IMG/VR virus record: IMGVR_UViG_3300043436_001089
DNA: 64,000 nt
Reading direction: 5' to 3' (one strand)
Source: a virus
Taxonomy: Duplodnaviria > Heunggongvirae > Uroviricota > Caudoviricetes
This document shows positions 43,256 through 64,000 of the stretch, piece by piece; the stretch's first letter is position 1, and the number at the start of each line of letters is the position of its first letter. The notes beneath the pieces are model-generated. The model ran no database searches. It saw only the letters and a list, made by a program, of their open reading frames with translations, and was not told the DNA's origin. A program made the position numbers and the translations under genes.

Positions 43256-43485
43256 GTGTCAACTCCGTATACCTGTTTAATCCATTGCCTCATTGAGATA
43301 TTTTGAAACTCAACATTACTGTCACGCTTGCCACCTGGGTAAACAACAAACAGTTCGTTAGCCACATCTTTAATAATCAACTCAGCGAACTTATCAGCAT
43401 GTTCTACTCCCATCCATTTGCCGCTTGTATCAGTACCGGCATTCTTCATCATTTCTTTAATTCGTTCATTCATCAGGTGCCCCAT
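43252..43485 (-). CDS. Hypothetical small protein
   Basis: 77-aa ORF. Confidence 0.4.
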   Translation of the reverse strand: MGHLMNERIKEMMKNAGTDTSGKWMGVEHADKFAELIIKDVANELFVVYPGGKRDSNVEFQNISMRQWIKQVYGVDT

Positions 43486-44321
43486 TCGTTCTTAAACAAC
43501 GGTACTTGAAGTCTGTCACTGTAGCGCCATCCTCTGTTCATTGCCGCGATTGCTACATTCTTAGCGTTCATGCTATATAATGATTCAACCCCACCGCAAG
43601 GCATCAAGTATACGGGACCAGTAAAGCCACGCTTACGATATTCGTCAACTGCTTGTTCTGCTTCTCGTACATCATCTTCTGTAGCAACTACGAATTTCAA
43701 ATAAACAAAACCATACTGCTTATACTGAGAAATTACGTCAGGACAAATTGCTTCTTCCCACTTCTCACCGCTAATAGATAGCTTAGGACTGACTGAAAAA
43801 GTGATAGCATCTTTAGCACGATTGCGTTGCCATTCACGTATGTAGTTACCAAACTCCGGAGTAATGAGTTGTGTACCATTTGTCTCAAAGGTCATCTCTT
43901 TGAGACTTCTCATTTTCTCATGTGAAAGTAAGTCAGGATACGCTCTTTGCCATCCGAGAAGAGGTTCGCCGCCCGTAATAACAAGGTGCTCATCCATCCA
44001 ACGACCTCTAGGAAGTGTACCAACAATGCTGTCAGCAATAGAATCGGTGTCAAGCACAGGACTAAGATGTTTAAAAGCAGGGTCCCAAGATGCATAACTA
44101 TCACATCCCGTACTGACAAGTGGTAAGGATTTATAATCTGTAAAAGTTTCTGCTTTAATTGCAATTGTTTCCCTTTCTAAGCTCATTTCTCCCTTTGGCA
44201 TACCAAAGCCACCGCAAGTAAAGTTGCAACCGAATGTTCGTAAGAACACACTAGGGACTCCCATAAACTTGCCTTCACCTTGAATGCTGTAGAATAATTC
44301 TGAAATTTTAAGTTGACTCAT
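43473..44321 (-). CDS. queE: 7-carboxy-7-deazaguanine synthase QueE-like radical SAM enzyme (atypical Cys spacing)
   Basis: ELFYSIQGEGKFMGVPSVFLRTFGCN, HLVITGGEP, FETNGT and SVSPK align with E. coli QueE blocks. The cluster motif reads CNFTC and the third Cys is about 37 residues later (STGCDSY). Confidence 0.7.
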   Translation of the reverse strand: MSQLKISELFYSIQGEGKFMGVPSVFLRTFGCNFTCGGFGMPKGEMSLERETIAIKAETFTDYKSLPLVSTGCDSYASWDPAFKHLSPVLDTDSIADSIVGTLPRGRWMDEHLVITGGEPLLGWQRAYPDLLSHEKMRSLKEMTFETNGTQLITPEFGNYIREWQRNRAKDAITFSVSPKLSISGEKWEEAICPDVISQYKQYGFVYLKFVVATEDDVREAEQAVDEYRKRGFTGPVYLMPCGGVESLYSMNAKNVAIAAMNRGWRYSDRLQVPLFKNEWGT

Positions 44322-45546: not shown

Positions 45547-46101
45547 TTACGCAAACAAGTCCTCATTCCACTCACGATGACCTTCACGATAAGCCATGTT
45601 AGATTGTGTCTCACGTACTTCAACACGATAGCACCATAGACGCTTGGCTTCACCATCACCCCACATATCAGGGATGTAAACACCATTCACATACTTGTAA
45701 AGCATATCTGCTAAACTCTCGCAACCAATTCGTGGTAGAATGGTTAGTTTAGCTAACTTCTTTTCTTGTAACATTTTGAATGTTTCAAGTTCGGGATCGT
45801 CTTGTGCGACTAGTAATGTATGGTCAAACTGATCCTCAAGAATCTTTTTCAATTCTTTAAGACCACCGTAGTCAGCCGCCCAGTTACGAACGTCTAGATC
45901 GTTTGTACCGAAATAGAATTTCATACTGAAACTGTACCCGTGAATCATGTTGCAGTGACTATCTGCACGCCACTGTCGATAAGCGCACGGGAATGAATCG
46001 TGATATTCTTTTGTGCTAGTATACTTATAAGTCACTGGTCTAGTGTTTTGTAAGTTTTCTTCTATGTGACGAATTAAGTCACCTGTTGATGAGTTTGCCA
46101 T
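45547..46101 (-). CDS. queD: QueD-like 6-carboxy-tetrahydropterin synthase (PTPS family)
   Basis: CNMIHGYSF matches the CxxxHGH zinc motif region. FDHTLLV matches LDHHYLN of E. coli QueD. It is longer than the E. coli protein (184 aa). Confidence 0.65.
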   Translation of the reverse strand: MANSSTGDLIRHIEENLQNTRPVTYKYTSTKEYHDSFPCAYRQWRADSHCNMIHGYSFSMKFYFGTNDLDVRNWAADYGGLKELKKILEDQFDHTLLVAQDDPELETFKMLQEKKLAKLTILPRIGCESLADMLYKYVNGVYIPDMWGDGEAKRLWCYRVEVRETQSNMAYREGHREWNEDLFA

Positions 46102-48892: not shown

Positions 48893-49570
48893 TTACTTAC
48901 CTTTGTTTGCAATCTGCAAGAACTCTGCACGTGCCGCTGGATCAGTTTTGAACCCGCCGCCTAATCGACAAGTAACAGTGCTTGAACCTGTATCTTCTAC
49001 GCCGCGACTCTTAACGCAATAGTGTTGTGCGTCAATCATAACTGCCACGTCCTCTGTTTCAAGTATGAATTGTAGCGTATGGAAAATCTGCTCTGTGAGG
49101 CGCTCTTGAATCTGCGGGCGTTTTGAAAAATACTCAACAATACGGTTGATCTTACTGAGTCCCAAGACTTTTTGCTTAGGAACATATGCAACAGTAGCCA
49201 AGCCGTCAATAACGACAAAGTGATGTTCGCAATTACTTTGGACGTTGACGTTACGCTCAACGACCATTTCGTTGTAGTGCATTTTGTTGTCCACGGTAGT
49301 GCATTTTGGGAACGCTTCATAATCTAAACCCCAGAAGATTTCGTTGACATACATCTTAGCAACACGCTTTGGTGTGTCAATCAAACTATCGTCTGTTAAG
49401 TCAAGACCGAGCGTTTCCATAATATATGCAAAGTGAAGTTCGATTTTATCAATCTTTTCTTTACGGTCTATACTATTAGGTTTTGTAGGTGTCTCAACAC
49501 CCATTTTGACTAAGTATTCGTGTACTTTTTGACCCAACTCTGGGTCTGTTTTTGTTTTATTATAACTCAT
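48893..49570 (-). CDS. folE: GTP cyclohydrolase I (FolE)
   Basis: CEHHFVVIDGLATVAYVPK, GLSKINRIVEYFSKRPQIQERLT and HYCVKSRGV align with E. coli FolE. The start is taken at MSYNKT after Shine-Dalgarno AAGGAAGG. Confidence 0.85.
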   Translation of the reverse strand: MSYNKTKTDPELGQKVHEYLVKMGVETPTKPNSIDRKEKIDKIELHFAYIMETLGLDLTDDSLIDTPKRVAKMYVNEIFWGLDYEAFPKCTTVDNKMHYNEMVVERNVNVQSNCEHHFVVIDGLATVAYVPKQKVLGLSKINRIVEYFSKRPQIQERLTEQIFHTLQFILETEDVAVMIDAQHYCVKSRGVEDTGSSTVTCRLGGGFKTDPAARAEFLQIANKGK

Positions 49571-49636
49571 AGATAACCTTCCTTTGTGATGGTTTTGTTT
49601 TGACATTGTGCTACCGTTGTGTAGCACAAGTATTTA

Positions 49637-49932: not shown

Positions 49933-50127
49933 TTAAGCCTTAGCTTTTGCTTCTGCACGTGCGGCTTTTTCTGCTGTAATTTCATTACGGCGAGCCTTAA
50001 CTGCTTTAGCTAGTTCTGCTAGTGCTTTGCGGGCACGTGTGCCTGCTGCCGCATTACCTGCAACAAACTTAGTATTTTCTGCGTTGTATGCAGCCAGTTG
50101 TGTTTCGATATCATTGTGTGCGCTCAT
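49933..50127 (-). CDS. Small basic Ala/Lys-rich protein (histone-like tail)
   Basis: The start is trimmed to MSAHNDIE after Shine-Dalgarno AAGGAG. The C-terminus is AEKAARAEAKAKA. Confidence 0.4.
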   Translation of the reverse strand: MSAHNDIETQLAAYNAENTKFVAGNAAAGTRARKALAELAKAVKARRNEITAEKAARAEAKAKA

Positions 50128-50137
50128 TAGTTTCTCC

Positions 50138-51325
50138 TTAAAATTTTGCTTCACGTGTGTGTTTGCGATAGTCTGTTGACATACGCAAATATTGTTCACC
50201 CTTGCCTTCAAGGATGTCACAAATTCTGTCTATAGTCCCGTCATTGCGTTGTGCGATAGCACCTTGATTATAATGAGGATCTCTTAGTAATGGGTGCAGT
50301 TTGTTAATAGCATCGTCAATAGACCAAGGCACGTAAAGTCTAGATGCATCATTTGCAAAAGTTTCTGGGAAACTCCTATAAGCAGGATACAAGACATTGC
50401 AACCAAGAGCATCCGCTTCGGATACGGTGTTGCTAACCCAGTCTTGTAAAGCGCAATTAAAGACAACACGACTATTGTTGACAATATTATAATAATCATT
50501 TTTACTCAAGTCCTCATGCAACGTAAGTAATCCGCGACTTACTAAGTCACGTGTGCGATCCATGTAACTATCGTTATTAGATTTCAGTTTGCTACCAGAG
50601 CAAACACAGAACTCTACGTTGTTACCATAACGCTCATGCCATTCTTCAATTAGATCCATATAGAAGTCAGGCTGCTTCTCTTGATCCCAACGTGCTGAAA
50701 AGACAACACGCATTGCCCGTTCTTCAAACGGTTTAATTTGATGCTGTACACGCTCACGTACTTCTTCCATGCCAAATGCTAGTCCACTGATATTGTAGAT
50801 CGGGACTTCCCAACCTGCAATCTTCATGTGCATGACCATTTCTTCATTAGTTGCGAGGATCGCACCACCACTCTGGCTAACAGCTTCGCAGACCATCTTC
50901 TCATAGGAACCCATCCACTTGGCCATCCCCCAAACGTGAACAAAGTCATCAGGGTCGATTGACTGCGCAAGACAGCGCACATATATCTTAGGGCGATGTG
51001 CTTCACTAACTTGATTAAGAATATAAGGCAAGCTCTCAAAGCCCGGCTGAAACATATCTTCAAAATAGATAACATCTTCATTATTGATTTTACCTTGTTT
51101 CATCCACATAACAAGATTCATCATCTGACTCATAGCAAAATAGCTACGACCATGTGCATCTAGTACTTGACCGGTTACAATAGATTCTTCATTGTCTAGT
51201 GTTTCACCGGGTACGATTACATACTGAATCTTGCGTTTCTCAAATGCACGTGTGTTCCACTGCTGTAGTTGCAATGTGTACCGTGCTTTATAGGGTTCTA
51301 GTCCCATGTAAATAAGTCTACGCAT
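50138..51325 (-). CDS. Putative glycosyltransferase (GT-B-like)
   Basis: 395 aa. ARWDQEKQPDFYMDLIEEW resembles the GT4 EX7E region. Weak evidence. Confidence 0.45.
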   Translation of the reverse strand: MRRLIYMGLEPYKARYTLQLQQWNTRAFEKRKIQYVIVPGETLDNEESIVTGQVLDAHGRSYFAMSQMMNLVMWMKQGKINNEDVIYFEDMFQPGFESLPYILNQVSEAHRPKIYVRCLAQSIDPDDFVHVWGMAKWMGSYEKMVCEAVSQSGGAILATNEEMVMHMKIAGWEVPIYNISGLAFGMEEVRERVQHQIKPFEERAMRVVFSARWDQEKQPDFYMDLIEEWHERYGNNVEFCVCSGSKLKSNNDSYMDRTRDLVSRGLLTLHEDLSKNDYYNIVNNSRVVFNCALQDWVSNTVSEADALGCNVLYPAYRSFPETFANDASRLYVPWSIDDAINKLHPLLRDPHYNQGAIAQRNDGTIDRICDILEGKGEQYLRMSTDYRKHTREAKF

Positions 51326-52085
51326 TATTTTTTCTTTCTATATCTTCTTCGTTGCATTCTTCACCATATTGAATCTCTACGATTCTACAAGGTGTCTTAT
51401 ATGGATTACTTAGTCTATGCCAATCACCTTGTGGAATTTGTACTTGACTGAATGTTGTTAGTTCCATTGAAGGCAATGCATAGCCACTAGGCATAGTCAT
51501 GTCAAGGATACAATTACCTTCAGTCACGTGCCAAAATTCGTGTCGCTTGAAATGTCGTTGCATACTCAGACTTTGACCGGGATTTACTGTTAATTCTTTT
51601 ACCTTGCATCCTTGCACATCATGTAGTATACGATAGTATCCCCATTGGCGCAACGTTTTTGGTTGTTTCCATTCACGTAGAATCCAACTGCTCGAATTCT
51701 TTTTATCATTTCCACCGACACCAAATACAAATTCTATGTTGTCGTCTTCAACATCCATTTCTGGAATGTTATCATGTGTTCTATCTCCGCCGTTAGCAAA
51801 GATAATAGTTGCTTCTGGGAATTTCTCCCTCACTGCGTAGATAGCATACTTTGCAGTATTGTCTACATCGTCAAAATTTATTACCCAATCTACTGGATCT
51901 AAATTTCCTACAATGGTTAGTCTTTCATCAAACGGCATAAAAGGTTGGCCCTTTTTACGAGCCAACCAATCATCACTGTTGAGACCAACTACTAAGTTGT
52001 CGCCCAATTCTTTAGCGGCTTTGAGATAACTGACATGTCCAGAATGTACAGGGTCAAAGCCTCCAGTGACTAATACAATTTTCAT
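51318..52085 (-). CDS. Heptose-1-phosphate adenylyltransferase-like (HldE domain II) fused to C-terminal cupin
   Basis: VTGGFDPVHSGHVSYLKAAKELGDNLVVGLNSDDW...VDWVI aligns closely with E. coli HldE domain II. The C-terminus has the cupin motif QRHFKRHEFWHVTEG. Confidence 0.65.
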   Translation of the reverse strand: MKIVLVTGGFDPVHSGHVSYLKAAKELGDNLVVGLNSDDWLARKKGQPFMPFDERLTIVGNLDPVDWVINFDDVDNTAKYAIYAVREKFPEATIIFANGGDRTHDNIPEMDVEDDNIEFVFGVGGNDKKNSSSWILREWKQPKTLRQWGYYRILHDVQGCKVKELTVNPGQSLSMQRHFKRHEFWHVTEGNCILDMTMPSGYALPSMELTTFSQVQIPQGDWHRLSNPYKTPCRIVEIQYGEECNEEDIERKNNA

Positions 52086-52288
52086 CGAATAATTGCTTCT
52101 GCCCACATGTCTTTGGGTGACTTGTTAGTCATCCATTTCTCAAACTGACGAAACGCAAAGCTTCGGCGGTCATAGAGAGTTGACTCGTCAAACTTGTATC
52201 CATAGTCCTGACAGAATTCAAGATATTTTTCCAAGTCTTCAAAAATTTGACGGACACGTGGATTGGGTTGAAAAGAAGGTTTTGCCAT
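52082..52288 (-). CDS. Hypothetical small protein
   Basis: 68-aa ORF. Confidence 0.35.
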   Translation of the reverse strand: MAKPSFQPNPRVRQIFEDLEKYLEFCQDYGYKFDESTLYDRRSFAFRQFEKWMTNKSPKDMWAEAIIR

Positions 52289-52301
52289 TTTAATAATTCC
52301 T

Positions 52302-52757
52302 TTAAATAGCGAGTTGTTGATAAGGTTGAGTTAAGTTATAATGAATCGTGGCACCGTTCTCACCGTCTTCGCTTACGGTAATAATGATTTCACGTTCGGG
52401 ATAGCGAGTAGCGATTTGCTCATAGAGGTCATCACTAATCATTTCACACGACTTATAATTCAATTCAAGTGTTCCGCCTTTATAGAGATTCTCTAACCAG
52501 CGTTTAAATTGAATGAACTCAATATCCCTGTCGTTGTGAAATACTTCAATCGCCACATTAAAGTGAAAAATGTGACGATGTGGGGTTCCTAGAAAGCTAA
52601 CATCATATTCGTCACCTGTCGCTAGGTTAAAATCTGATGCTGCCGCGGGGTACTTATGAATACCTTCTTTCTGAAAGGTCACAAAAATCATACGTTTCGC
52701 TTTATCTTTAATGCGATTACGTGCTTCTACCATTGCATGGTGTCGTTGTTCAATCAT
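52302..52757 (-). CDS. Hypothetical protein, possible T-fold (PTPS/QueD-related)
   Basis: LGTPHRHIFHF loosely resembles the PTPS HxH zinc site context. Weak evidence. Confidence 0.3.
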   Translation of the reverse strand: MIEQRHHAMVEARNRIKDKAKRMIFVTFQKEGIHKYPAAASDFNLATGDEYDVSFLGTPHRHIFHFNVAIEVFHNDRDIEFIQFKRWLENLYKGGTLELNYKSCEMISDDLYEQIATRYPEREIIITVSEDGENGATIHYNLTQPYQQLAI

Positions 52758-52966
52758 CTGTCATCCCCAAAGTCTACTGTATCATGGTCGTGATCCCATT
52801 GAGCACGATTCATTTGTCTAAGTTCAGTCATGTATTTTACACTAGTAGTACGCAGTTCTGCAAGTTTTTTGGGATCTGCGTTTCCCGATTTCTCTAATTG
52901 AAATATCTGATTTTCTACTATTCTGTGTGATTCTTCTAATGTTTTAATACGTTGAGTGTATGGCAT
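52754..52966 (-). CDS. Hypothetical small coiled-coil protein
   Basis: 70-aa ORF. Confidence 0.35.
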   Translation of the reverse strand: MPYTQRIKTLEESHRIVENQIFQLEKSGNADPKKLAELRTTSVKYMTELRQMNRAQWDHDHDTVDFGDDR

Positions 52967-52967
52967 A

Positions 52968-54548
52968 TTATTCTCCTAAAACTTCATTGATTGCGTCATC
53001 ACTATCCTCAATGATTTCATCAATCTCTGGCTCACTACTATTTACTTCAAATAATTGGTCAAACATAGTCATAGCATTTTCAGTTTTCTTACCGCTGATA
53101 CCTTGACTACCTGATTGAAACTGCTTCCAGTAACTGTTATGATAGTTGATAACATCTAATGCTTCTTGTTTAGTCTTCTTACTAAAGATTTCATCAACAA
53201 TATTTTTAAAAAAGCTATCACCGTCTAATTTATGAACTAACATCTTAGGCACAACACCCTGCGCATATTGACGATTAGCTTCTTGAACAGCATTCATATG
53301 CATCCAAACATTATGACTCTGAATCAATGTATAGCTCAATGTATCCCAACTAGTTTTAGTTTCTTTACCATGTGCACCTAAGAAGCCTTGACCCCTATAG
53401 CATACGTCCTTAACGACTAGTTTATCAGTTACTGGACTATCTGTAAAGAGTTTATGGACGCCGTCATTAATAATAGCATCACTAAACTTACGTTGGTCAC
53501 CACCGGGCATACCTGTTTGAGGTACACCGTACTTCTTATCATCTAGAGTTTTTTCCATACTATACGCCCACTTTTTATTGTGTTCAATACTAGTGTTGAA
53601 ATAACCTAGACCTTTAGCCGCACTATAGAACGGGCTTGCACAGTCAAATGTAATTTGAAGCTTTGGATTATGATACTTGCGGATAGCTTTCTGAATGTCA
53701 GTGAACAATACTGCATACTCTAAAATACTTGTACCTAAACAGTGAATCAAGTCATGCTTGCCTTCTTGTAATAGACCATCATGGATGATATCAACCATAC
53801 GTGTTAGCATTAAGTGAACGTCAATTTTGTTCTGTCCTCCAAACGCCCATCCGTTGAAGTGATTATCCGGATAGATATTTGGATCGCAATACTTTTTCAT
53901 TTCAAGATACCAATCATCAGATTGTGTATGATTGCGACCTTGCAATACGTTTAAGAACTTGCATTTACCCGAACGATGCTTTATAAAGTATTCGTTGTTA
54001 ATATGTGTAGCAGTGATAGCTTCTTCAATAGTACTAATACCGTGAGCACTCTTGCCTGTCTTAGGATCCTTGATATGAAAGGTAGTCAAGGATTGTGATG
54101 GGATATCAAGACACATACCATAGTCCATGTATGTGTCCATCCACGTGAGAACTTCTTTACGTTTCTTCATAGCACGTGGGCAGTTAGGATCTTTCCAATC
54201 AGCAGGCCACTGACATTTCAAAATCTGAAATCCACCTGAGTCACCCAACATGAAAGTACCTTCTTCACGTTCACGTATGATACTCTCACTAGAATCATTT
54301 TTCATTGGATCTAAGTTAGCATGACCAGCAGAGTACAAACCCCACTTATAAGTATACACACCTTCTTTACTATTTAAGAAATTTAATTTTTCAACATCAC
54401 CATTAAACCCTGCAGGAATACGTGATTGGTCAAAATAGTTTTCACCTTTACGCTGTTTACCTAAGCCGGCAATATAGAACGAACTTACTGCTGGTAAAAA
54501 CAGTGCCCATTCAGGGTCTTGTTTTGCTGATAGATTATCTTGTTGCAT
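52968..54548 (-). CDS. dpdA: DpdA-like DNA-guanine transglycosylase (TGT superfamily)
   Basis: FMLGDSGGFQILK matches the catalytic DSGG[FY]Q motif of tRNA-guanine transglycosylases. It lies next to folE, queD and queE, as in phage 7-deazaguanine DNA modification clusters. 526 aa. Confidence 0.65.
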   Translation of the reverse strand: MQQDNLSAKQDPEWALFLPAVSSFYIAGLGKQRKGENYFDQSRIPAGFNGDVEKLNFLNSKEGVYTYKWGLYSAGHANLDPMKNDSSESIIREREEGTFMLGDSGGFQILKCQWPADWKDPNCPRAMKKRKEVLTWMDTYMDYGMCLDIPSQSLTTFHIKDPKTGKSAHGISTIEEAITATHINNEYFIKHRSGKCKFLNVLQGRNHTQSDDWYLEMKKYCDPNIYPDNHFNGWAFGGQNKIDVHLMLTRMVDIIHDGLLQEGKHDLIHCLGTSILEYAVLFTDIQKAIRKYHNPKLQITFDCASPFYSAAKGLGYFNTSIEHNKKWAYSMEKTLDDKKYGVPQTGMPGGDQRKFSDAIINDGVHKLFTDSPVTDKLVVKDVCYRGQGFLGAHGKETKTSWDTLSYTLIQSHNVWMHMNAVQEANRQYAQGVVPKMLVHKLDGDSFFKNIVDEIFSKKTKQEALDVINYHNSYWKQFQSGSQGISGKKTENAMTMFDQLFEVNSSEPEIDEIIEDSDDAINEVLGE

Positions 54549-55736: not shown

Positions 55737-58454
55737 TTAACCGAATGTGAATAAATCATCAAATGTTGAATTCGTGTCAGTGTTTGAACGTATGTCCCAA
55801 TCTAGCACACCCAACAAGTTATCAATCTTTTCATCAACTAGAGTCTTTTCCATTTCTTTGTCATCAAATGGTAGCTCAACAAACCACTGTGGTAGTCTGA
55901 GTTCATCAGTAGGGTATGCGATTGAAGTAAATCCTAAGGGATTAGGTTTCAACTTACACACAATAACCTTCATACCATCAACAATCTTTTGACTATATTG
56001 ATCTCCGTTAACTCTGCGCAAGTAGTTATAGTTAAGTGCGGCTCTTACGTGACCGGGCATGTTTGCTTTGCCCGTCGAACTCTTTTCTTCTTTCTCACCG
56101 TAACTTGTTAATTTGTTAACACCTTTAGGTGAGCCTTTAGTCCAACTATCTTGTGCTGCCAAGACACGTTTAAAAGTTTTGACAACTTCAATAACTTCGT
56201 CACGACCCTTACCTTGCTGAATAACCATTTGTAGTACGTTCATTAAAAACTCTTGTACATACTTAGGTGTATCCGCACGTTTCAAGTCAAGACCCATCGC
56301 TTTGATATCGCCCATCTTACCATCTTTATCTTTACGTTTGCCTTCTTTATCAAAGATATTGATAGCATAACGCTTTTTAGTAATAAAGATACTACGATCA
56401 CCGATCAATTCACGACCTGCTTTGATAATCTCACCGTTCTTACGAGGTGCATGAAATGCTTTCTCCATGAACTGGGGGAATGACTCGTTAGCCTGATCTG
56501 CTATACTATCGTACAATCCAATGCACAACTCTTTGTCCCACTTCAGTTCACCTTTAGCAACCTGATCTTTGAGAATAGGCCATGCACTGAAATAACAAGA
56601 GTCAGTGTCGCCATAAACAATAGCTTCACCTTCGTGCGTATACTCGCCCGCAACACATTCGTTAATCTGACTCATCATGTGCTTAACAATCTGACGACCA
56701 CTTAGTGTAACTGATTGACCGATACGCTTGTCATAGAAACGACAGTGTTCATTCAGCAATGCACCATACGCAGAGTTCAACAAAATCTTACGAACTAGTT
56801 GACGCTTATCCCAATACTCTTTGTCAGTGTCAGTAGTTGCCTCTTTTAATTTCTTTTGCATTGTTTTACGATCACTGTACCAACGTGTGAGTAGACCAGG
56901 AATCACGCCCTCTTTCTCATACGTAAAGATTGTACCGTTCGCACTTAGCATATAAGGCTTGTGACTATCAAAGATCATCTTCCAGATTTCTGCGGCAGAC
57001 ATTTCTACACTGCGACCATCTTCAAAGTCAACAGTAAGAATAGTACCACGTTCTTGACTCATGATAGCTGTGTACTCTAATGCACCAAACAAACCTTCCC
57101 ATAAAATAGCACCTTCAACTGCATCATCGCCATCTTTGTAGCGTTTCTTTTCCATTGCAAGTTTGAGGCCCTTTTCATGCATGTACTTTTCAGTTAATGT
57201 TTGTCTGACTTGGGCAACGATTGTTTCTGGTGCCATGTTGAGGGCACGAATAACCGAGGGATAGAGCGAGTTAATATCGACTGCTCCGACCCATTCATGC
57301 ATGCCTCTTTTCGGAGTAGCAACGAAGGCACCTGCTGCCTGCTGGACATCTTCTTCATTTTCAACCTTTCGTTTTTTATCAGGAACCACTAATCCACGTT
57401 CATGAGATTCATTCATGATAGCCATTTCAATCATAGCTACTGAACCCATAACTGTCGGCAATAGCACAGTATTTTCATGTGCTAGTTGATTTGCCAATTC
57501 TAAAAACTTAAGCTTGTTGTGAATTTTCACTAACAACAATGTATCTTGTCTATTGTATTCAATGAACTTTTTAAAGTCTTGATTATACAATTGGTCAAGT
57601 GTACCTTCATACTGAGTCTTGTTCTCACCTACTTCCATCTCACCGATAGAATCTAGTTTGTAACTATGACGGCTTTCATAGTTGTACTTTTTATACAACT
57701 GTAAATAGTCCATATGAATACGACCCACCAAGTCATATGTCATTTCAACCTTACCGAATCGTTCATATTCTCTAGGCTTAGGTAGTTGACCCATCAAGCA
57801 AAACTTGCGTGTGTCATCTTTACTCATTACTCTAGTAACACGATTGACCATGTAGGGAATATCATAGCCCTCTGAGTTCCAGCCTGTCATCACATCAGCA
57901 TCTTCAATCAACTGAAAGAACACATCAAACATGTCCTTCTCATTTTTGAATAGCATTGTATTTTCAAACTGACTTACAATCTCATTTGCTGTATCATCTG
58001 TCATGTGCTTAGGTGCAATAACAAGAGTGACACACTGATCTAACCAATCCAAGTAACAACTAATCGCAGTTACAGGATTGAATGGATCGCTAGTAGGACT
58101 AAAACCTTTCTCAGGATCAAAGTCTACTTCAATGTCAAAGAAGCAGGTATGAAGCTTAGGTGCGTCAATGCCAAGATAGTTTTCACTAAGACACCTGAAC
58201 ACAACGTTAACATCACTCTCAAATAATTTCTTACCTGAGTGAATCCTACGTTCCTTTTCAAATTCAGTGCGCTTGCGAGTGCTGAATCTTGATACAGAGT
58301 CATTGTAAATACTACGATGTTTACCCTTAGGGTCAGCGTAGTAAAGAACGTAGTTCGTAGGAAACTCTTTGTATTCACGCTTGCCCTCAGGTGATCGTTC
58401 TACTACGTAGATACGATCTTCATCCCTGCTGTGGATAGCGTCAACGTAGCTCAA
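55737..58454 (-). CDS. DNA polymerase, family B (T4 gp43-like)
   Basis: Exo I motif FFDIEVDF. Pol motifs DINSLYPS, KILLNSAYG and YGDTDS. 905 aa. Confidence 0.9.
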   Translation of the reverse strand: MSYVDAIHSRDEDRIYVVERSPEGKREYKEFPTNYVLYYADPKGKHRSIYNDSVSRFSTRKRTEFEKERRIHSGKKLFESDVNVVFRCLSENYLGIDAPKLHTCFFDIEVDFDPEKGFSPTSDPFNPVTAISCYLDWLDQCVTLVIAPKHMTDDTANEIVSQFENTMLFKNEKDMFDVFFQLIEDADVMTGWNSEGYDIPYMVNRVTRVMSKDDTRKFCLMGQLPKPREYERFGKVEMTYDLVGRIHMDYLQLYKKYNYESRHSYKLDSIGEMEVGENKTQYEGTLDQLYNQDFKKFIEYNRQDTLLLVKIHNKLKFLELANQLAHENTVLLPTVMGSVAMIEMAIMNESHERGLVVPDKKRKVENEEDVQQAAGAFVATPKRGMHEWVGAVDINSLYPSVIRALNMAPETIVAQVRQTLTEKYMHEKGLKLAMEKKRYKDGDDAVEGAILWEGLFGALEYTAIMSQERGTILTVDFEDGRSVEMSAAEIWKMIFDSHKPYMLSANGTIFTYEKEGVIPGLLTRWYSDRKTMQKKLKEATTDTDKEYWDKRQLVRKILLNSAYGALLNEHCRFYDKRIGQSVTLSGRQIVKHMMSQINECVAGEYTHEGEAIVYGDTDSCYFSAWPILKDQVAKGELKWDKELCIGLYDSIADQANESFPQFMEKAFHAPRKNGEIIKAGRELIGDRSIFITKKRYAINIFDKEGKRKDKDGKMGDIKAMGLDLKRADTPKYVQEFLMNVLQMVIQQGKGRDEVIEVVKTFKRVLAAQDSWTKGSPKGVNKLTSYGEKEEKSSTGKANMPGHVRAALNYNYLRRVNGDQYSQKIVDGMKVIVCKLKPNPLGFTSIAYPTDELRLPQWFVELPFDDKEMEKTLVDEKIDNLLGVLDWDIRSNTDTNSTFDDLFTFG

Positions 58455-58717
58455 AGTGTTTTGCCCACAGTTTCCAAGATAGTGTTGAGTTCATCGTGGT
58501 CTTTGTTAGTCTGACCGAGACTTGCTTTGTGTGCAATCTTAATTGCTTTCTTCAACGTAGAAGCTTTGATTTCCAATTCTTCTGCAACTGCCTTAACAGT
58601 ATCATTCAATCCACCGTTAAGTGTATCAATTTCATGTAGGACGGTCATGCCCTCATTGATTAGCTGTGTAAGTTTGATTTTTGCTTCGTTATTGAAAGTG
58701 CGGTTATAATCTGACAT
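58451..58717 (-). CDS. Hypothetical protein
   Basis: 88-aa ORF directly upstream of the polymerase gene. Confidence 0.4.
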   Translation of the reverse strand: MSDYNRTFNNEAKIKLTQLINEGMTVLHEIDTLNGGLNDTVKAVAEELEIKASTLKKAIKIAHKASLGQTNKDHDELNTILETVGKTL

Positions 58718-58806
58718 AGGTTCTCCTTAAATATCTAGTTAGTATAGCAGATTGTGTAGAGAAGTCAACTATTTTAGGTAACACAAAACACACACTAAAT
58801 ATTTGC

Positions 58807-60294
58807 ATGAACATAATCTTTTGGAATGGTGGAGTTGATTGGGGAGTCTCAAGGACTATCGGTCCTTATAAGGTAGCGTATTGGTTACGTAAGCACAACT
58901 ACACTTCCCAAGTAATAGACTTCATTGACTTCTTACCCGGTGATATCATTGAAAAATTAACCAGAAAGTTTATTACCAAAGACACAAAAGTTTTGGCAAT
59001 ATCAACAACCTTTCTAGCACTAGCGGTGCATACGCATTCTAATGGTAAAAAATATTGGATATCAGAAACTAATCTAGCCATACTAAAACGTATCAAGCAA
59101 GACTTCCCTGATATAAAGATAGTGCTCGGTGGGTACAAATCCGAAAAGCTTGCAGGCTTTGGGATCGTTGATGCTACGGTAATGTCATACACAACTGCAT
59201 CTGAAGAAATCTTTTTGGAATACATGAATCATTTAACTACAGGTTCAGAGCCTCCTGAATCAGTAGAATGCTGGTGGGATCCTGATAAGCGACCCGTATA
59301 CAACAAAGCTAGAAACCCAATATACAATATTGAAGTAGATGATTTCAAATGGTCTAAAGAAGACGGTATCTTACCAGGTGAGCCTTTACCACTTGACATA
59401 AGCAGAGGGTGTATCTTTGCTTGCAGATTTTGTCAGTACCCACACTTGGGTAAAAAGAAATTAGACTATATCCGTGGTATGGAGTTCTTGAAAGAAGAAA
59501 TTCTTTACAACTATGAGAATTTCGGCACTACATCATATTATATCATTGATGATACTTTCAATGATACTGAAACTAAGATGAAGGCGTTCTATGACATGAC
59601 GCAAACACTTCCGTTTAAAATAAACTATGCAAGTTATATTCGTGCAGACCTAGTATATCGTTTCCCGGATACAGCACACTATCTTAAAGAGTCGGGTTTA
59701 TACGGGGCGTTCTTTGGCCTTGAGTCATTACATCCAAGTGCTAGTAATATTGTAGGTAAAGCATGGAGTGGTAAACATGCTAGAGAATTTATTCCTGAAC
59801 TATATCATAACATCTGGGATCATCATGTACCTATTCATACTAACTTTATTGTAGGTATCACTGGTGAAACAATAGAAAGTGTTGACAGTACTGCTGATTG
59901 GTTTATTCAAAATGATTTACATAGCATAACATTTGAACGATTAGGATTGAATGGACCTGACGATGGGCCTGTGTGGTCTATTAAGTCGGAGTTTGATAAG
60001 AACTCATCCAAGTATGGATTTACAATGTTGCCCTCACAATCTAATTCAATCTTTGCTGATTGGAAGAATGATAACTGGACTAGAGATAGTGCAGGCTATC
60101 ACGCAGATAGATTGAATAAGAAGTTAGCAGACCATCGCAAAGTTGTTACATGGTCTATTCCTAATTTATTGTGGTACGGTGTAACTAAAGATGAGATTGA
60201 AAACAAACGCAGAAATGAATATCCTGCTGAATTTTTCAAACACGCTAATCGTACTAAAATTATAGAGTATTGCAAAAAGATGCTGTCAATGTAA
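58807..60294 (+). CDS. B12-binding domain radical SAM enzyme (class B)
   Basis: N-terminal Rossmann-like B12-binding region. DISRGCIFACRFCQYP is a CX3CX2C motif. 495 aa on the plus strand. Confidence 0.7.
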   Translation: MNIIFWNGGVDWGVSRTIGPYKVAYWLRKHNYTSQVIDFIDFLPGDIIEKLTRKFITKDTKVLAISTTFLALAVHTHSNGKKYWISETNLAILKRIKQDFPDIKIVLGGYKSEKLAGFGIVDATVMSYTTASEEIFLEYMNHLTTGSEPPESVECWWDPDKRPVYNKARNPIYNIEVDDFKWSKEDGILPGEPLPLDISRGCIFACRFCQYPHLGKKKLDYIRGMEFLKEEILYNYENFGTTSYYIIDDTFNDTETKMKAFYDMTQTLPFKINYASYIRADLVYRFPDTAHYLKESGLYGAFFGLESLHPSASNIVGKAWSGKHAREFIPELYHNIWDHHVPIHTNFIVGITGETIESVDSTADWFIQNDLHSITFERLGLNGPDDGPVWSIKSEFDKNSSKYGFTMLPSQSNSIFADWKNDNWTRDSAGYHADRLNKKLADHRKVVTWSIPNLLWYGVTKDEIENKRRNEYPAEFFKHANRTKIIEYCKKMLSM

Positions 60295-60879
60295 TTTATT
60301 TTCAACAATCTTCTTGACCAATGTGTGCAAGCCTGGGTTAACATGTAATGCTTGGGGCATCAATACATTGCGCACATAGTTTCGCATGTATTTGGTGTCT
60401 TGGTTGGACTCGTCTTCGATCCAAGGCACTTCATGTCTCAAACACCAACTCTTGAATTCATCTTTGCGTGTAGTTAAGAACGGGCGTAATACATTGTTAC
60501 GAGTTAATGGAATAACTTTGGCTGTGCCGTGAAGACTAGACCAAATAAATGTTTCTACACAGTCATCTAAGTGATGGCACGTGATAACCGGGCCCAACTC
60601 ATTTAAGAATTCATAACGCACTCTACGCCAATATTCTTCTTGACTTTCTTCTTTTGATTTATCACTACGAGGTGTACCAAACATCATAGGGATATTATTA
60701 TCTGTGCAATATTGGGCAACAAATTTAAATGCTTTTTGACCGTTTTCAGTACCATGATGAAAATGTGCAACGGTTACATCATGCTTTCGTTTCAGAAAGT
60801 CAACGACAGCCATACTATCAACACCACCGCTACATGCGACAGTAATTCTTTTGGGTAGAGGTACTAAAAGTTTAAGCAT
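60286..60879 (-). CDS. PP-loop ATP pyrophosphatase, TilS/MesJ-like
   Basis: VACSGGVDSMAV (SGGxDS) and VAHFHHG resemble the TilS N-terminal domain more than QueC. 197 aa. Confidence 0.6.
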   Translation of the reverse strand: MLKLLVPLPKRITVACSGGVDSMAVVDFLKRKHDVTVAHFHHGTENGQKAFKFVAQYCTDNNIPMMFGTPRSDKSKEESQEEYWRRVRYEFLNELGPVITCHHLDDCVETFIWSSLHGTAKVIPLTRNNVLRPFLTTRKDEFKSWCLRHEVPWIEDESNQDTKYMRNYVRNVLMPQALHVNPGLHTLVKKIVENKLH

Positions 60880-60904: not shown

Positions 60905-61483
60905 TTATTGAAAGATGTGATGGTTCTTTTCACCGTAAATCTTGATGTATTTACCCGCAAGCATATCGGCCATAGCTTCAATTGGGCTACCTGGATAACT
61001 TGACCCGGGTTTAATCATGTTTAATTCGTCTTGGCGTACATGTACTAGTTCGTGGAATACAGTTCGTAAAATATCTACTAAGTTTCTATTAGTAACATAT
61101 ACCCAAATTGTTCCGGCGCCAGTTGTGTGACCACCAGTGTGATGATTTGTTTGTGCTTCTTCTGTATCGGTGCTGAGTTCGATTTCAGGTATAGTTTTTA
61201 AGTTTAGTTTTTTACTAGTCCACTCAACAAACTTATTAACTTCATCTTCTATGTCAAGAGACTCAGTATCAGTTTCATCTAGTTTATTTTTTATCCAACT
61301 ATCAGGTGTATTTTTGAATTTTTTAACAAACAAATCATGCAATGCTTTACCGGTTATATGGTGCTTTTTAGCTATTGAACGCATTAAAAGGTCAATAGTA
61401 TCGTAGTCATGCTTACGCAATGAAGGTAGCTTTTTTGCTAACTCTTGCGCTGCCGATTCTGTTAAAATTTCGTCTGATATCAT
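60905..61483 (-). CDS. Hypothetical protein with HExxH motif (possible zinc peptidase)
   Basis: VFHELVHVRQDE and a His-rich segment NHHTGGHTTG. Confidence 0.4.
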   Translation of the reverse strand: MISDEILTESAAQELAKKLPSLRKHDYDTIDLLMRSIAKKHHITGKALHDLFVKKFKNTPDSWIKNKLDETDTESLDIEDEVNKFVEWTSKKLNLKTIPEIELSTDTEEAQTNHHTGGHTTGAGTIWVYVTNRNLVDILRTVFHELVHVRQDELNMIKPGSSYPGSPIEAMADMLAGKYIKIYGEKNHHIFQ

Positions 61484-61858: not shown

Positions 61859-62542
61859 TTACCAAGAATTATCAGTTATGTCTAACTGATGTTTCTCAAA
61901 TCTCTTTAATCTATTTATGAAATCTGTAGTCTGCTCAGTAACAATTCCGGTCATTTGAAATGTTACTCTAGGGTTATGCCCTGCGTTTGCTGTAGCATGG
62001 GGGATGTTCTGCCAATCAAATGTTGTCACATCTCCTGCATGCCAAAATTGATGCATATGATTACCGTAAGACCAAAAGTGCCCCGGCTCCCAGTCTGTTA
62101 ACTGTACTTGTAACCTCATAACACGCCATGGTTCTTCAGGACACCATTTTTCTAACTTGTCTAAATGAAGATTCCAAACTTCCCCGGGCATCTGTACATG
62201 TACACGATCCATACAATCTCGTAGTCCAAATAACTCACTGATTCGCTTTAGCTTTTCAGGTATATCCCAGTTCAAGTGAGTAATTTGATAATCTTTACCG
62301 TAACCAAATTTCTCTAAGTCGTAATCTTCACTTGCTAGTTCTTCTTCAGGCCGAGTCTTCCCAACTTTGCCGCGTGTTCTCCACGTTGCAGGTTTTGCAT
62401 TTTTGATAATATCAGTTAGCTCAGGTTTAAAATCCGCTACAATTTTACCAAGTGATGTGACTTTATCTTGTTGAGAATCTAATTTGAAATTATCAAAATG
62501 ATACTTGCTACGCTTTTTTGTTTCTTCCCAATTACTTAACAT
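61859..62542 (-). CDS. Hypothetical protein (His/Trp-rich C-terminal half)
   Basis: 227 aa. HFWSYGNHMHQFWHAGD may be a metal site. Confidence 0.45.
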   Translation of the reverse strand: MLSNWEETKKRSKYHFDNFKLDSQQDKVTSLGKIVADFKPELTDIIKNAKPATWRTRGKVGKTRPEEELASEDYDLEKFGYGKDYQITHLNWDIPEKLKRISELFGLRDCMDRVHVQMPGEVWNLHLDKLEKWCPEEPWRVMRLQVQLTDWEPGHFWSYGNHMHQFWHAGDVTTFDWQNIPHATANAGHNPRVTFQMTGIVTEQTTDFINRLKRFEKHQLDITDNSW

Positions 62543-63165
62543 ATTACTGATACCTCTATATCGTTTTCTATATAACTTTGATTGTATTCTGCAGGGGGTG
62601 ACTCAATTCCGAGAATCAATGCCAACCTAGAGTTGTTATACACTCTAAATGGCTTGTGTTTGTCCATTGCGTCTTGTATGTCACTGTTTTGTTCTTCTAT
62701 AAAAGATGACATGGTGCGTAGGTCTTTGTAGTATGTATCATACTTGGGATAAGTTATATCAAAGTGGCCGCATTTTACCCACCAACCTAAACAACTATCA
62801 TTATCTCTATGAACTAATACAATTGGGCATTCAGGCCATGTTTCTTTAATGTAATTGATGTGATGTGCGAACACATGACTTTTAATAATACGGACCCCTG
62901 TACCGTCAGGTGCAAAAGCTTTATCAAACGCTTCTTCATGTTGTTCTTTAGTGTACATTGGCATTCTTAGACAGAGTTCGCCAAACTCCATACCGGGATC
63001 AAAGTATGCGCCTAAATGCATTAGTTGCATTGTGCCGCTAGCATCGTGATAATAGGTACGCTCATCACTGTAGTCTGATTGGTCTATGCTAGGGCTGTAG
63101 TAAATATTCTTTACTACACTAGACCATTTAGAGCCGGGTGCGCCGGCTACGAAAATATATTTCAT
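62536..63165 (-). CDS. Hypothetical protein
   Basis: 209 aa. The N-terminal VAGAPGSKWSS is neither a clear Walker A nor a clear sulfotransferase PSB motif. Confidence 0.4.
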   Translation of the reverse strand: MKYIFVAGAPGSKWSSVVKNIYYSPSIDQSDYSDERTYYHDASGTMQLMHLGAYFDPGMEFGELCLRMPMYTKEQHEEAFDKAFAPDGTGVRIIKSHVFAHHINYIKETWPECPIVLVHRDNDSCLGWWVKCGHFDITYPKYDTYYKDLRTMSSFIEEQNSDIQDAMDKHKPFRVYNNSRLALILGIESPPAEYNQSYIENDIEVSVIC

Positions 63166-64000
63166 TTTTTACTTAATTGTACTATGATAGGTTTAAAATT
63201 CTTTCTTAATGCTTCGGCATATACCTTAACACCTTCTGTATTTAATTGCTTTTCTTCAATCAAAATATAATTATTGTAGGCCCACTCTTTGTATTCAGGA
63301 CTTCTTATTGCTTTACTAAACTCAGATTGATACCAGTTTACTATCTCCGTAGATGTGTCAGGTGGCAAACTTACCATCCAACCAGCATAAACACTAATAC
63401 CTGGAATACTATCTTCAAGTAAAGGAGCACCTGCAATTTTTTCAGGAACTTTATCCCCAGTAAGACCTATCAATTTTACTTTTCCTGCATCAATTAATGG
63501 TCTTGCTATAGCTATTGGCATAATACCGAATTCTACTTCTTTGTCACCGGCTACCGCAGTGACTGCTTGCTGAGGTCCACCATATCTTACAGCACGAATT
63601 TTGTCTTTGTCACCTTTTGTTTTTAACATGATATATTCGTATGCCATTTGGTGTGCTCCACCACCTACAGCAATGTTTATATTTCTATGACTAGAGTGAA
63701 CTGTTGCTAAGAATTGTTGTGGGGTGTCAACTAGGCTTGATTTATTAGCTACTAGTGCTAGTGGACTTTGACCTAGCGTTACAACATTATTAAAAGAATT
63801 ATATTGAAACTTTTTTACATCTTGTTGCCAAATATCATTAGTTACAAACAAACTCATGTGACTAGGAACACTGATTGTTAAACCATTTTTCTCTGCGTTA
63901 AACAATAAGTTTTGTGAAACTACCGCATCTGCTCCGGGTTTGTTTTCAATTATGAAATTTATGCCAGGATTGTTTTTCTCTACAATACTTGATGCTTTTC
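63162..64000 (-). CDS. TctC/Bug-family periplasmic substrate-binding protein (N-terminus beyond window end)
   Basis: The ORF remains open to the window end. ...INFIIENKPGADAVV... and IAVGGGAHQMAYEY resemble TctC family blocks. The track start at 63905 is a TTG inside a longer open frame. Confidence 0.5.
   Translation of the reverse strand, partial: KASSIVEKNNPGINFIIENKPGADAVVSQNLLFNAEKNGLTISVPSHMSLFVTNDIWQQDVKKFQYNSFNNVVTLGQSPLALVANKSSLVDTPQQFLATVHSSHRNINIAVGGGAHQMAYEYIMLKTKGDKDKIRAVRYGGPQQAVTAVAGDKEVEFGIMPIAIARPLIDAGKVKLIGLTGDKVPEKIAGAPLLEDSIPGISVYAGWMVSLPPDTSTEIVNWYQSEFSKAIRSPEYKEWAYNNYILIEEKQLNTEGVKVYAEALRKNFKPIIVQLSKK

Follow-up and report, generated by a model that had tools for sequence, protein, structure and literature searches.

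Every tRNA(Ile) lysidine synthetase (TilS) described so far has at least the C-terminal domain CTD1; the distal domains aid catalysis and the rejection of tRNA-Met, and removal of CTD2 loosens discrimination at the acceptor stem (PMC11947777). Among viruses, TilS has been annotated in phages MIJ3 and RsoM2USA (PMC6892783, PMC8504454), and the TilS of chloroviruses has likewise been explained by an AUA-decoding rationale (PMC7589089). Phages that encode DpdA, FolE, QueD and QueE but lack QueC are also documented, with pathways ending in dCDG or dDG (PMC10516641).

The locus analysed here contains genes related to both of these systems. In the window, that is, the whole stretch of 64,000 nucleotides under analysis, which comes from a large freshwater phage, a minus-strand gene at 60286..60879 encodes a 197-aa protein consisting of the TilS catalytic N-terminal domain alone (mini-TilS). 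Convergent with it, and overlapped at its 3' end by 9 bp, is a plus-strand gene at 58807..60294 encoding a 495-aa, class-B-like radical SAM enzyme (rSAM), which the first-pass annotation had singled out as the sole large plus-strand ORF of the last 20 kb, in agreement with the ORF list. The explanation that we consider probable is that two unrelated accessory functions abut at this site: a mini-TilS for AUA decoding and a separately inserted, virus-specific rSAM.

Mini-TilS is a core gene of the clade to which the window phage belongs. It forms part of a conserved module around the Family B DNA polymerase, in the order p192, TilS, p88, polymerase, p243, p126 and DpdA-like protein. The polymerase gene (55737..58454, minus strand) encodes a protein with 47% identity to that of PA5oct. 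The direct neighbour of mini-TilS in most relatives is p88 (58451..58717, minus strand), a small conserved protein that matches PHROG 12534 and, less strongly, a transcription-regulator PHROG. Most clade loci have p192 (60905..61483 here, minus strand) on the other side of mini-TilS; it contains the motif HELVH and adjoins mini-TilS in many loci, with inserts between the two in others. The junction between TilS and p88 is variable: relatives without rSAM have about 40–70 nt between the TilS stop and the p88 start, or other inserts of 0.7–0.9 kb, and in the window it is occupied by the rSAM gene together with a spacer at 58718..58806. A minus-strand sigma-70-like site at 58768-58741, a consensus match only, faces p88, and a scan for promoters and terminators around the rSAM gene stayed at background level. 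The Rfam scan of the window at gathering thresholds returned zero RNA families, megablast of the region against 50,697 phage records gave zero matches, and PHROGs contained no family for rSAM or for mini-TilS.

The same minus strand carries a set of deazaguanine-related genes. These encode a divergent QueE (7-carboxy-7-deazaguanine synthase; 43473..44321), which scored 54 bits with TIGR03365, below its cutoff, matched four more QueE models and is 33% identical to the annotated QueE of PA5oct; a T-fold protein of the QueD/PTPS family with the motif CxxxHGY (45547..46101), orthologous to PA5oct EST35_0258; FolE (GTP cyclohydrolase I; 48893..49627; PF01227, 204 bits); and a DpdA-like protein, a putative DNA guanine transglycosylase, with the motif DSGGFQ and without a Pfam match (52968..54548). 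Homologues of this last protein in cultured phages were found only in PA5oct-like phages, Phosso and one Vibrio phage. Because its comparison with E. coli Tgt by hhalign reached a probability of just 7.9%, with the QG, GG, G.G and FDC motifs aligned, and a sequence search of the PDB returned noise, its assignment as a TGT is based on motifs and synteny. Other products encoded in the window are glycosyltransferases, an epimerase, an APS-kinase-like protein and sulfotransferase-like proteins.

The 197-aa product is a TilS catalytic domain by several measures. It scored 124.5 bits with TIGR02432 (cutoff 93.6), covering profile positions 1–189 of 189, and 121 bits with PF01171. In the aligned sequences it spans residues 25–227 of A. 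aeolicus TilS, 13–197 of E. coli TilS and 21–221 of G. kaustophilus TilS. A Foldseek search returned the TilS structures 2e21, 1wy5 and 1ni5 as top matches (best E = 2.5e-12), with 23–27% identity to solved TilS in the structural alignments. The PP-loop ITVACSGGVDS occupies residues 12–22; all 29 close homologues share it unchanged, and across 137 family members its conservation is at least 93%. The motifs SGGxDS, HxxH, RxxRY, HHLDDxxET, RP, EDxSN and RNxxR are common to mini-TilS and the three solved TilS in the alignment, and their core residues are at least 85% conserved among the 137 family members. The helical subdomain that closes the TilS N-domain is kept as well. Two features set the protein apart: the Gly-rich loop RGxGxxGL of cellular TilS is absent family-wide, as a deletion of 5–8 residues relative to the solved TilS sequences, and both CTD1 and CTD2 are lacking, residue 197, the last, corresponding to about residue 227 of 317 in A. 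aeolicus. The full-length TilS model NF007942 gave 77.9 against a cutoff of 606. The family, of ~200 aa, is large and mostly found on viral contigs (181 representative clusters at E <= 1e-30). These results agree with the first-pass annotation, which had seen a TilS catalytic domain in the motifs SGGVDS and AHFHHG, both present, had judged the C-terminal tRNA-binding domains to be absent, and had proposed a profile search, in which the TilS N-domain model passed and no QueC family of Pfam or NCBIfam matched.

Outside the window clade, mini-TilS is coupled to a specific tRNA gene. We collapsed 28 mini-TilS loci from outside the clade to 22 lineages; in 16 of these a tRNA with a CAU anticodon lies within 4 kb of mini-TilS, always on the same strand, and in 13 it is the nearest tRNA, often at a distance of 6–80 nt. 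In several of these loci it is the sole tRNA of the 20-kb locus. None of the linked CAU tRNAs has the C3-G70 pair typical of tRNA-Met/fMet; in most of them position 3 is G or A and pairs with C70 or T70, which is the signature of tRNA-Ile(CAU) (PMC1635315). DpdA, FolE, QueD, QueE and QueC had zero matches within 10 kb in all 28 loci. Since the gene is coupled to an Ile2-type tRNA and has no deazaguanine genes nearby, the reading as a lysidine synthetase is supported and the replacement of QueC is not. Of the two options offered in the first-pass annotation, it is thus the tRNA(Ile) lysidine synthetase-like enzyme that gains from the TIGR02432 match, the alignment of the whole catalytic domain and this linkage.

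Other phages that encode mini-TilS show a similar association. The TilS protein of PA5oct/MIJ3 (EST35_0433 in PA5oct) has 203 aa, is 43% identical to the window protein and belongs to the same family. PA5oct encodes mini-TilS at 277.4 kb, and two CAU tRNAs are part of a tRNA cluster at 267.5–271.8 kb. The one tested shares 87% identity with E. coli genes annotated as tRNA-Ile; the second differs from it only in the acceptor stem. AUA accounts for 46% of the Ile codons in ten long PA5oct genes. In the huge phage LR756502, mini-TilS is located between two tRNA arrays with 25 tRNAs altogether.

Following the established chemistry of TilS, the PP-loop of mini-TilS would use ATP to adenylate C2 of cytidine 34 in tRNA(Ile2) with a CAU anticodon, and an amine, which is lysine in canonical TilS, would then displace AMP. 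The modified tRNA(Ile2) would be charged with Ile and read AUA rather than AUG, and the phage might in this way secure AUA decoding where host capacity is scarce. The substrate may be a phage-encoded tRNA(Ile2), as in PA5oct and most related lineages, or the tRNA(Ile2) of the host. Mini-TilS would operate outside the 7-deazaguanine pathway, with the FolE, T-fold, QueE and DpdA-like set working without QueC, as in phages with CDG- or DG-type DNA bases. The rSAM would be a single opposite-strand gene that, in one sub-clade, was inserted at an intergenic site of variable content. Because all described TilS have CTD1 and the distal domains aid catalysis (PMC11947777), activity of the N-domain by itself is a prediction.

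Some observations from the window clade speak against AUA decoding. Searches for tRNA genes came up empty in the window and its flanks (8.8 kb upstream and 6.3 kb downstream, ~15 kb, giving ~79 kb in total), on extension beyond these by way of a flanking protein, and in more than 110 mini-TilS loci of the clade. AUA makes up only 13% of the Ile codons of the window. Mini-TilS is part of a replication and DNA-modification module there, and both this clade and PA5oct are without QueC or another PP-loop enzyme. The missing RGxGxxGL loop, set beside the CTD1 of all described TilS (PMC11947777), points in the same direction.

The protein encoded on the opposite strand matches Radical_SAM of Pfam (PF04055; 43.5 bits, cutoff 29.5) over residues 198–365. 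It comprises an N-terminal Rossmann-like domain (~1–170), the rSAM barrel (~195–380) and a helical C-terminal domain. The cluster C202-x3-C206-x2-C209 (CxxxCxxC) is invariant in 50 homologues, which have no other conserved cysteines. The best NCBIfam alignments were with B12-rSAM families, namely PhpK (72.7 bits), the ladderane rSAM (58.9) and HpnJ (52.7), all far below their cutoffs; among the named families compared (PhpK, ladderane rSAM, HpnJ, BzaD and BchE) none passed, the best score being 72.7 against a cutoff of 600. The fold matches the class-B, AprD4 and RimO group. Homology and fold suggest that the enzyme is most like the cobalamin-dependent class B enzymes and that it may bind cobalamin. 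The earlier description as a class B, cobalamin-dependent rSAM therefore holds for the rSAM part, by PF04055 and CxxxCxxC; its 'B12-binding' label is an inference, and the Pfam B12-binding domain (PF02310) gave no match. A methylthiotransferase of the MiaB/RimO/MtaB type was considered and rejected, as the protein has neither the N-terminal cysteine triad nor a TRAM-like domain and its C-terminal region is helical.

The distribution of the rSAM differs from that of mini-TilS. Among 80 clade loci anchored on TilS, 5 have it at the TilS-p88 site, and another 32 loci all lack it. Because it occupies the site in a sub-clade only, the functional pairing of rSAM and PP-loop gene implied by the first-pass annotation is weakened. 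Homologues at 46–55% identity are located in unrelated contexts. The family is essentially absent from cellular genomes (185,579 scanned, with one weak match on a 3.9-kb MAG contig), and from cultured phages, with zero tblastn matches in the 50,697 phage records. In the contexts found elsewhere, the homologues recurrently adjoin tRNA arrays, tmRNA genes or a second type of TilS, which is suggestive: the adjacency to mini-TilS may not be purely accidental. Clustering of the flanking ORFs revealed no obvious conserved partner gene, the only recurrent neighbours being a cell-wall hydrolase, TctC-like proteins and fatty-acid desaturases.

These neighbourhoods raise the possibility that the rSAM modifies a translation-related RNA (tRNA, tmRNA or the lysidine-bearing tRNA(Ile2)) and that its place beside mini-TilS is functional. 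We consider this unlikely. In large phages, tRNA and tmRNA genes lie in hyperplastic islands where accessory genes accumulate, and the TctC-like and fatty-acid-desaturase genes recur in them too; several of these contexts may share ancestry, and five or six contexts are without a tRNA, tmRNA or TilS neighbour. The protein itself is mildly acidic (pI 6.4) and, as noted, without the TRAM-like domain and the cysteine triad of methylthiotransferases, and most members of the clade keep mini-TilS without the rSAM. The related proposal of an rSAM belonging to the translation toolkit of the phage, acting on tRNA or tmRNA and possibly within the tRNA(Ile2)/lysidine system, is in our view quite unlikely. 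We know of no earlier rSAM of the two-domain, class-B-like architecture with an RNA substrate. If the present one had such a substrate, this could indicate a further, undescribed elaboration of the wobble base that decodes AUA. In this regard, the enzyme for the conversion of lysidine to ava2C is still unidentified (PMC11938285).

An alternative for mini-TilS itself is that it places an amine other than lysine on C34 of a CAU tRNA, or that its tRNA specificity is relaxed. The family-wide loss of RGxGxxGL, by 5–8 residues, and the absence of both CTDs would fit either version; TilS may tolerate various Lys analogues in vitro, a natural variant of lysidine, ava2C, exists (PMC11938285), and the looser acceptor-stem discrimination that follows CTD2 loss (PMC11947777) would favour relaxed specificity. 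However, the remaining conserved motifs of the N-domain and its C-terminal helices are kept, and positive support for another nucleophile is lacking, so that we regard such a departure from lysidine synthesis as rather improbable.

Class-B rSAMs commonly methylate unactivated carbons of sugars and heterocycles. Given this chemistry, the rSAM of the window could take part in the hypermodification of DNA or glycans by C-methylation of a 7-deazaguanine derivative or a sugar, and the deazaguanine cluster, glycosyltransferases, epimerase, APS-kinase-like and sulfotransferase-like proteins of the window would provide a setting for it. The gene is, however, at least 13 kb from those genes and on the opposite strand, most clade members with the complete cluster lack it, and around its homologues elsewhere DpdA, FolE and QueE neighbours are absent. 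A role of this kind thus seems very unlikely.

The last alternative concerns the deazaguanine pathway, in which mini-TilS could stand in for QueC by adenylation and then amidation of the carboxylate in 7-carboxy-7-deazaguanine to yield ADG or preQ0, which the DpdA-like enzyme would insert into DNA. The first-pass annotation had reported canonical QueC to be absent, and tblastn with E. coli QueC bore this out, with zero matches in the window, 8.8 kb upstream and 6.3 kb downstream; QueC was not found in the complete PA5oct genome either. Mini-TilS is the sole ORF with a PP-loop motif in the window and the sole PP-loop enzyme in complete PA5oct. An SGGKDS 3.6 kb past the window end (L002:17990-18850) was considered as a second PP-loop protein or QueC and turned out to occur by chance within a GNAT-like protein. 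FolE, the T-fold protein, QueE, the DpdA-like protein and mini-TilS are common to the window clade and PA5oct-like phages, and in the window clade the DpdA-like gene is ~5.7 kb from mini-TilS, with no tRNA near. The Vibrio phage with a partial DpdA-like match has QueC and is without mini-TilS, and modified G is present in PA5oct DNA (PMC12191111). The co-occurrence of mini-TilS and preQ0-pathway genes is, however, confined to the window clade and the related PA5oct group, as opposed to 0 of 28 other loci, and since these phages are related and share synteny the two amount to about a single observation. The huge phage LR756502 encodes mini-TilS and gave no DpdA-like match. The protein shows no similarity to QueC: no QueC family was among its Pfam or NCBIfam matches at E <= 0.01, BLASTP with E. 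coli QueC gave E = 6.5, and QueC ranked 39 and 48 in the Foldseek search (E = 7e-3 to 1.6e-2). Its cysteines (16, 58, 101, 107 and 146) form no CxxC-type cluster and no CxxCxxC, and hence no Zn-cysteine motif. Considering also the retained TilS N-domain motifs, the link to Ile2-type tRNAs in 16 of 22 other lineages and the QueC-less pathways to dCDG and dDG already known (PMC10516641), we conclude that replacement of QueC by a TilS fold, the second option of the first-pass annotation, is highly improbable.

Under the explanation that we favour, a mini-TilS for AUA decoding beside an unrelated rSAM, a viral TilS family with the catalytic domain only would be a natural minimal system. It is usually paired with its own tRNA(Ile2) gene in a module of two genes, and could reveal the minimum needed for tRNA recognition and lysidinylation; the pair would also make a compact, portable AUA-decoding cassette for work on codon reassignment. 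For annotation, CAU tRNAs adjoining mini-TilS genes, including the 'tRNA-Met' genes of PA5oct, should be read as tRNA-Ile2, and where a phage deazaguanine cluster lacks QueC, the nearest PP-loop protein should not be assigned to that role. The rSAM family recurs as an accessory gene restricted to viruses, and its substrate merits a search.

Compared with described systems, the rSAM is best placed beside the class B enzymes TsrM, CysS, TokK, MgmA and OxsB and the PhpK family, with AprD4 and RimO/MiaB as structurally similar proteins. The deazaguanine set resembles QueC-less phage systems, such as the dDG pathway via DpdL of Cellulophaga phiST and the CDG-stage pathway with DpdA3 (PMC10516641), in combining FolE, a T-fold protein, QueE and a distant TGT-like DpdA. 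It differs in that the DpdA-like protein of the window has no tblastn match to that of phiST or to the DpdA3 of Campylobacter phages, and the CxxxHGY of the T-fold protein is neither the CxxxHGH of QueD nor the LxxxHRHxF of DpdL. Like QueC, Gat-QueC, QueC*, QatC and Cap9, mini-TilS is a member of the PP-loop ATP pyrophosphatase superfamily encoded in a genome with FolE, a QueD-like protein, QueE and a DpdA-like protein, but unlike QueC it has no match to QueC models, no BLAST similarity and no Zn-binding cysteine cluster. With the TilS of PA5oct/MIJ3, RsoM2USA and chloroviruses it shares the rationale that AUA codons are numerous in an AT-rich virus that encodes tRNAs of its own; the reports on these proteins give the annotation only and do not address the N-domain-only build or the coupling to CAU tRNAs. 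Among viral enzymes, RsoM2USA ORF84 (349 aa) and the TilS of another locus (L123) are longer and Type-II-like, unlike mini-TilS. Type I TilS (E. coli, 1NI5; G. kaustophilus, 3A2K) consists of NTD, CTD1 and CTD2 and Type II (A. aeolicus, 1WY5) of NTD and CTD1, whereas mini-TilS consists of the NTD only. It keeps the full catalytic N-domain of cellular TilS, with SGGxDS and the other shared motifs, and is distinguished from it by a shortened loop at the position of RGxGxxGL and by its membership of a separate, mostly viral family.

Mini-TilS, the 197-aa PP-loop protein of the window (60286-60879, minus strand), and rSAM, the 495-aa radical SAM enzyme adjoining it (58807-60294, plus strand), are both present, with their 3' ends overlapping tail to tail by 9 bp. 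In the final 20 kb of the window, rSAM is the sole large gene on the plus strand, and the first-pass annotation was confirmed in this observation as a whole. The window is part of a large uncultured phage: a protein identical to rSAM was found on JGI/NCBI contigs of 94–174 kb, the contigs of relatives measure about 350 kb, and a nucleotide search detected no near-identical DNA among cultured phages. Just upstream of the window, the same contig (L129, 479-808 and 2203-2418) encodes an IscA-like Fe-S assembly protein, which may serve the three radical SAM enzymes of the phage, and an IF1/eIF-1A-like protein.

Mini-TilS scored 121 bits against Pfam PF01171 and 124.5 bits against the curated TilS N-domain model TIGR02432 (cutoff 93.6), and just 77.9 against the full-length TilS model (cutoff 606). 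Aligned to three solved TilS proteins, it spans residues 25-227 in A. aeolicus, 13-197 in E. coli and 21-221 in G. kaustophilus, that is, the entire catalytic N-terminal domain and none further, and shares with them the motifs SGGxDS, HxxH, RxxRY, HHLDDxxET, RP, EDxSN and RNxxR; a shorter segment replaces the Gly-rich RGxGxxGL loop of cellular TilS. In a fold search with its AlphaFold model (pLDDT 81), TilS structures ranked first (E = 2.5e-12) and QueC appeared only at ranks 39 and 48 (E ~1e-2). BLASTP gave no match to E. coli QueC, nor was any QueC model matched in Pfam and NCBIfam profile searches. Given the match confined to the N-domain, the poor full-length score and the lack of a QueC match, the protein was correctly described as a TilS catalytic domain without the C-terminal tRNA-binding domains. 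Among 1.84 billion cluster representatives searched exhaustively, 181 matched at E <= 1e-30, nearly all of 180–240 aa; a collection clustered at 90% identity gave over 2,000 matching proteins, of which the best 120 are all close relatives of 174–206 aa. Mini-TilS thus represents a large family of stand-alone TilS N-domains.

When diverse representatives of the family were aligned and viral contigs searched with the result, 28 mini-TilS loci were obtained outside the window's clade, or 22 lineages after collapsing at >=90% nucleotide identity. In 16 of the 22 lineages, mini-TilS has a tRNA gene with a CAU anticodon no more than 4 kb away, and in 13 no other tRNA is closer. The two genes always share a strand and are often 6–80 nt apart, and at several loci no further tRNA occurs in 20 kb. 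The C3-G70 pair usual in tRNA-Met and tRNA-fMet is absent from every linked CAU tRNA. In most of them, position 3 is G or A and pairs with C70 or T70, the tRNA-Ile(CAU) signature of Silva et al. (PMC1635315); C4-G69 and C5-G68 are also common. In the 642-kb phage LR756502, mini-TilS sits between two arrays totalling 25 tRNAs. There is thus strong comparative evidence that the family would be a genuine tRNA(Ile2) C34-modifying enzyme travelling with its substrate. The TilS-like enzyme proposed earlier is the right reading.

The closest cultured homologues (43% identity) belong to PA5oct-like Pseudomonas jumbo phages. In PA5oct, mini-TilS is located ~6–10 kb from a cluster of 12 tRNAs, including three CAU tRNAs annotated 'tRNA-Met' (L101, MK797984.1 267558-270240). 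In two of these, the D, anticodon and T arms are the same and only the acceptor stem differs; the one compared shares 87% identity with E. coli genes that are annotated as tRNA-Ile. The third shows the C1/A72 mismatch of an initiator tRNA. They are probably two tRNA-Ile2 and one initiator-like tRNA, which would leave PA5oct without an elongator tRNA-Met gene and make the public annotation misleading. AUA accounts for 46% of Ile codons in ten long PA5oct genes; it is very rare in GC-rich Pseudomonas. In the window, AUA represents only 13% of Ile codons, a gap in the TilS account for this phage, and none of the more than 100 loci of its clade has a tRNA within 10 kb of mini-TilS.

Gene order across these >100 IMG/VR loci is conserved: p192, mini-TilS, p88, DNA polymerase, p243, p126, the DpdA-like gene and, further on, FolE. 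The p192 gene (60905-61483, minus strand), whose product has an HELVH (HExxH-like) motif near its C-terminus and only a partial PHROG match in a family search, flanks mini-TilS on the side away from p88 in most loci and directly adjoins it in many, with inserts of up to ~4 kb between them in some relatives. We detected rSAM in 5 of 80 TilS-anchored clade loci and in none of 32 further loci; elsewhere, the TilS-p88 junction holds a gap of ~40–70 nt or other inserts of 0.7–0.9 kb. Therefore, rSAM is a lone gene inserted on the opposite strand at a variable site. Another such single-gene insertion is the one other large ORF on the plus strand, of 498 aa and with a GP88 domain (83 bits; 38974-40470, plus strand), flanked by an epimerase gene and a 151-aa ORF that is itself beside a UvdE-like endonuclease gene.

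A Pfam search assigned rSAM a Radical_SAM domain, and its CxxxCxxC is invariant in homologues, with no further conserved cysteine. It had been called B12-binding; HMM alignments to the B12-rSAM families PhpK, ladderane and HpnJ begin at residue 27 or 40, all far below cutoff, so a class-B-like designation is justified at fold level and cobalamin binding is putative. A methylthiotransferase is argued against by the missing cysteine triad and TRAM domain. Homologues at 46–55% identity occur in other large phages: in L110 the gene is 3 nt from a CAU tRNA belonging to an array of 31 tRNAs, in L111 it is ~0.7 kb from an array of 18 and in L127 7.4 kb from another array, whereas three more lie 3, 50 and ~700 nt from Rfam-confirmed betaproteobacterial-type tmRNA genes (contigs L006, 11506-11828; L118, 9549-9951; L122, 3496-3889). 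These tmRNAs are permuted (beta_tmRNA, 103–155 bits) and, with the TctC/Bug-family genes on such contigs, point to betaproteobacterial hosts. In the L123 group, the homologue is 4.5 kb from a different, 325-aa TilS (16009-16986) and directly followed by an Smr-domain gene (11528-11908); unlike mini-TilS, this TilS keeps the RGSGLRGL loop and runs on for ~100 residues past the catalytic N-domain. Five or six more contexts have no tRNA-array, tmRNA or TilS neighbour. L119 carries two paralogous copies of rSAM. The recurrence near translation RNAs may reflect function or co-location in hyperplastic accessory islands. TctC-like and fatty-acid-desaturase genes recur there too, and the protein is mildly acidic (pI 6.4); we consider an RNA substrate for rSAM unlikely. 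TctC-like genes are within ~6 kb of the homologue in four contexts (L006, L118, L121 and L126), and the window itself ends in a gene for a 320-aa TctC/Bug-family periplasmic solute-binding protein (63162-64000, minus strand, continuing to 15318 in locus L002).

The 7-deazaguanine genes of the window (43473-54548, all minus strand) comprise a divergent QueE (43473-44321), an adjoining radical SAM protein that has a twitch/SPASM-like domain at its N-terminus (44308-45396), a single T-fold protein in which CxxxHGY stands where QueD has CxxxHGH (45547-46101), FolE (48893-49627) and a DpdA-like protein of 526 aa that contains DSGGFQ and matches no Pfam family (52968-54548). FolE, a T-fold protein, divergent QueE and a long DpdA-like protein are common to the window's clade and the PA5oct group; PA5oct adds a canonical QueD, and modified G has been reported in its DNA (PMC12191111). 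The reported lack of QueC was borne out in the window, ~15 kb of flanks and the complete PA5oct genome, reassembled from nine pieces, so the suggestion that mini-TilS replaces it cannot be dismissed by a QueC elsewhere; however, phages with DpdA, FolE, QueD and QueE and without QueC are already documented, and incorporation of CDG- or DG-type bases accounts for them (PMC10516641), mini-TilS is coupled to CAU tRNAs in other lineages, and the two groups, sharing at least 20 homologous genes and local synteny, count as one observation, which together make a QueC surrogate very improbable. DpdA-like, FolE, QueD, QueE and QueC genes were absent within 10 kb of mini-TilS at all 28 outside loci. Near the DpdA-like gene in both this phage and PA5oct is an unusually well conserved 151-aa protein (52302-52757, minus strand; 53% identical to PA5oct EST35_0318) with no family match, a candidate partner of the transglycosylase. 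Interleaved minus-strand genes (40456-42647, 46177-47716, 50138-52106 and 62536-63165) encode an APS-kinase-like/nucleotidyltransferase fusion, two sulfotransferase-like proteins (below Pfam cutoff), an NAD-dependent epimerase, two GT4-type glycosyltransferases and a cytidylyltransferase-cupin protein of the mannose-6-phosphate isomerase C-terminal type, and may form a sulfated or glycosylated modification pathway.

The rSAM family has several hundred metagenomic members of ~500 aa; cultured phages gave no match, and a scan of 185,579 cellular genomes essentially none. It is new as a class-B-like radical SAM family that is restricted to viruses and shows an affinity for loci of translation RNAs. 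In the TilS proteins described, CTD1 is the minimum (Type II) and CTD2 accompanies it in most (Type I), with the distal domains contributing to catalysis and discrimination (PMC11947777); a TilS consisting of the N-domain alone is thus a new variant. Family members were already annotated as TilS in PA5oct and MIJ3 (PMC6892783), a longer phage TilS is known from RsoM2USA (PMC8504454) and chlorovirus TilS has also been annotated (PMC7589089). The novelty, modest but real, lies in the rSAM family and in this N-domain-only TilS family, which is widespread among large phages and in most cases comes with a tRNA(Ile2) of its own.
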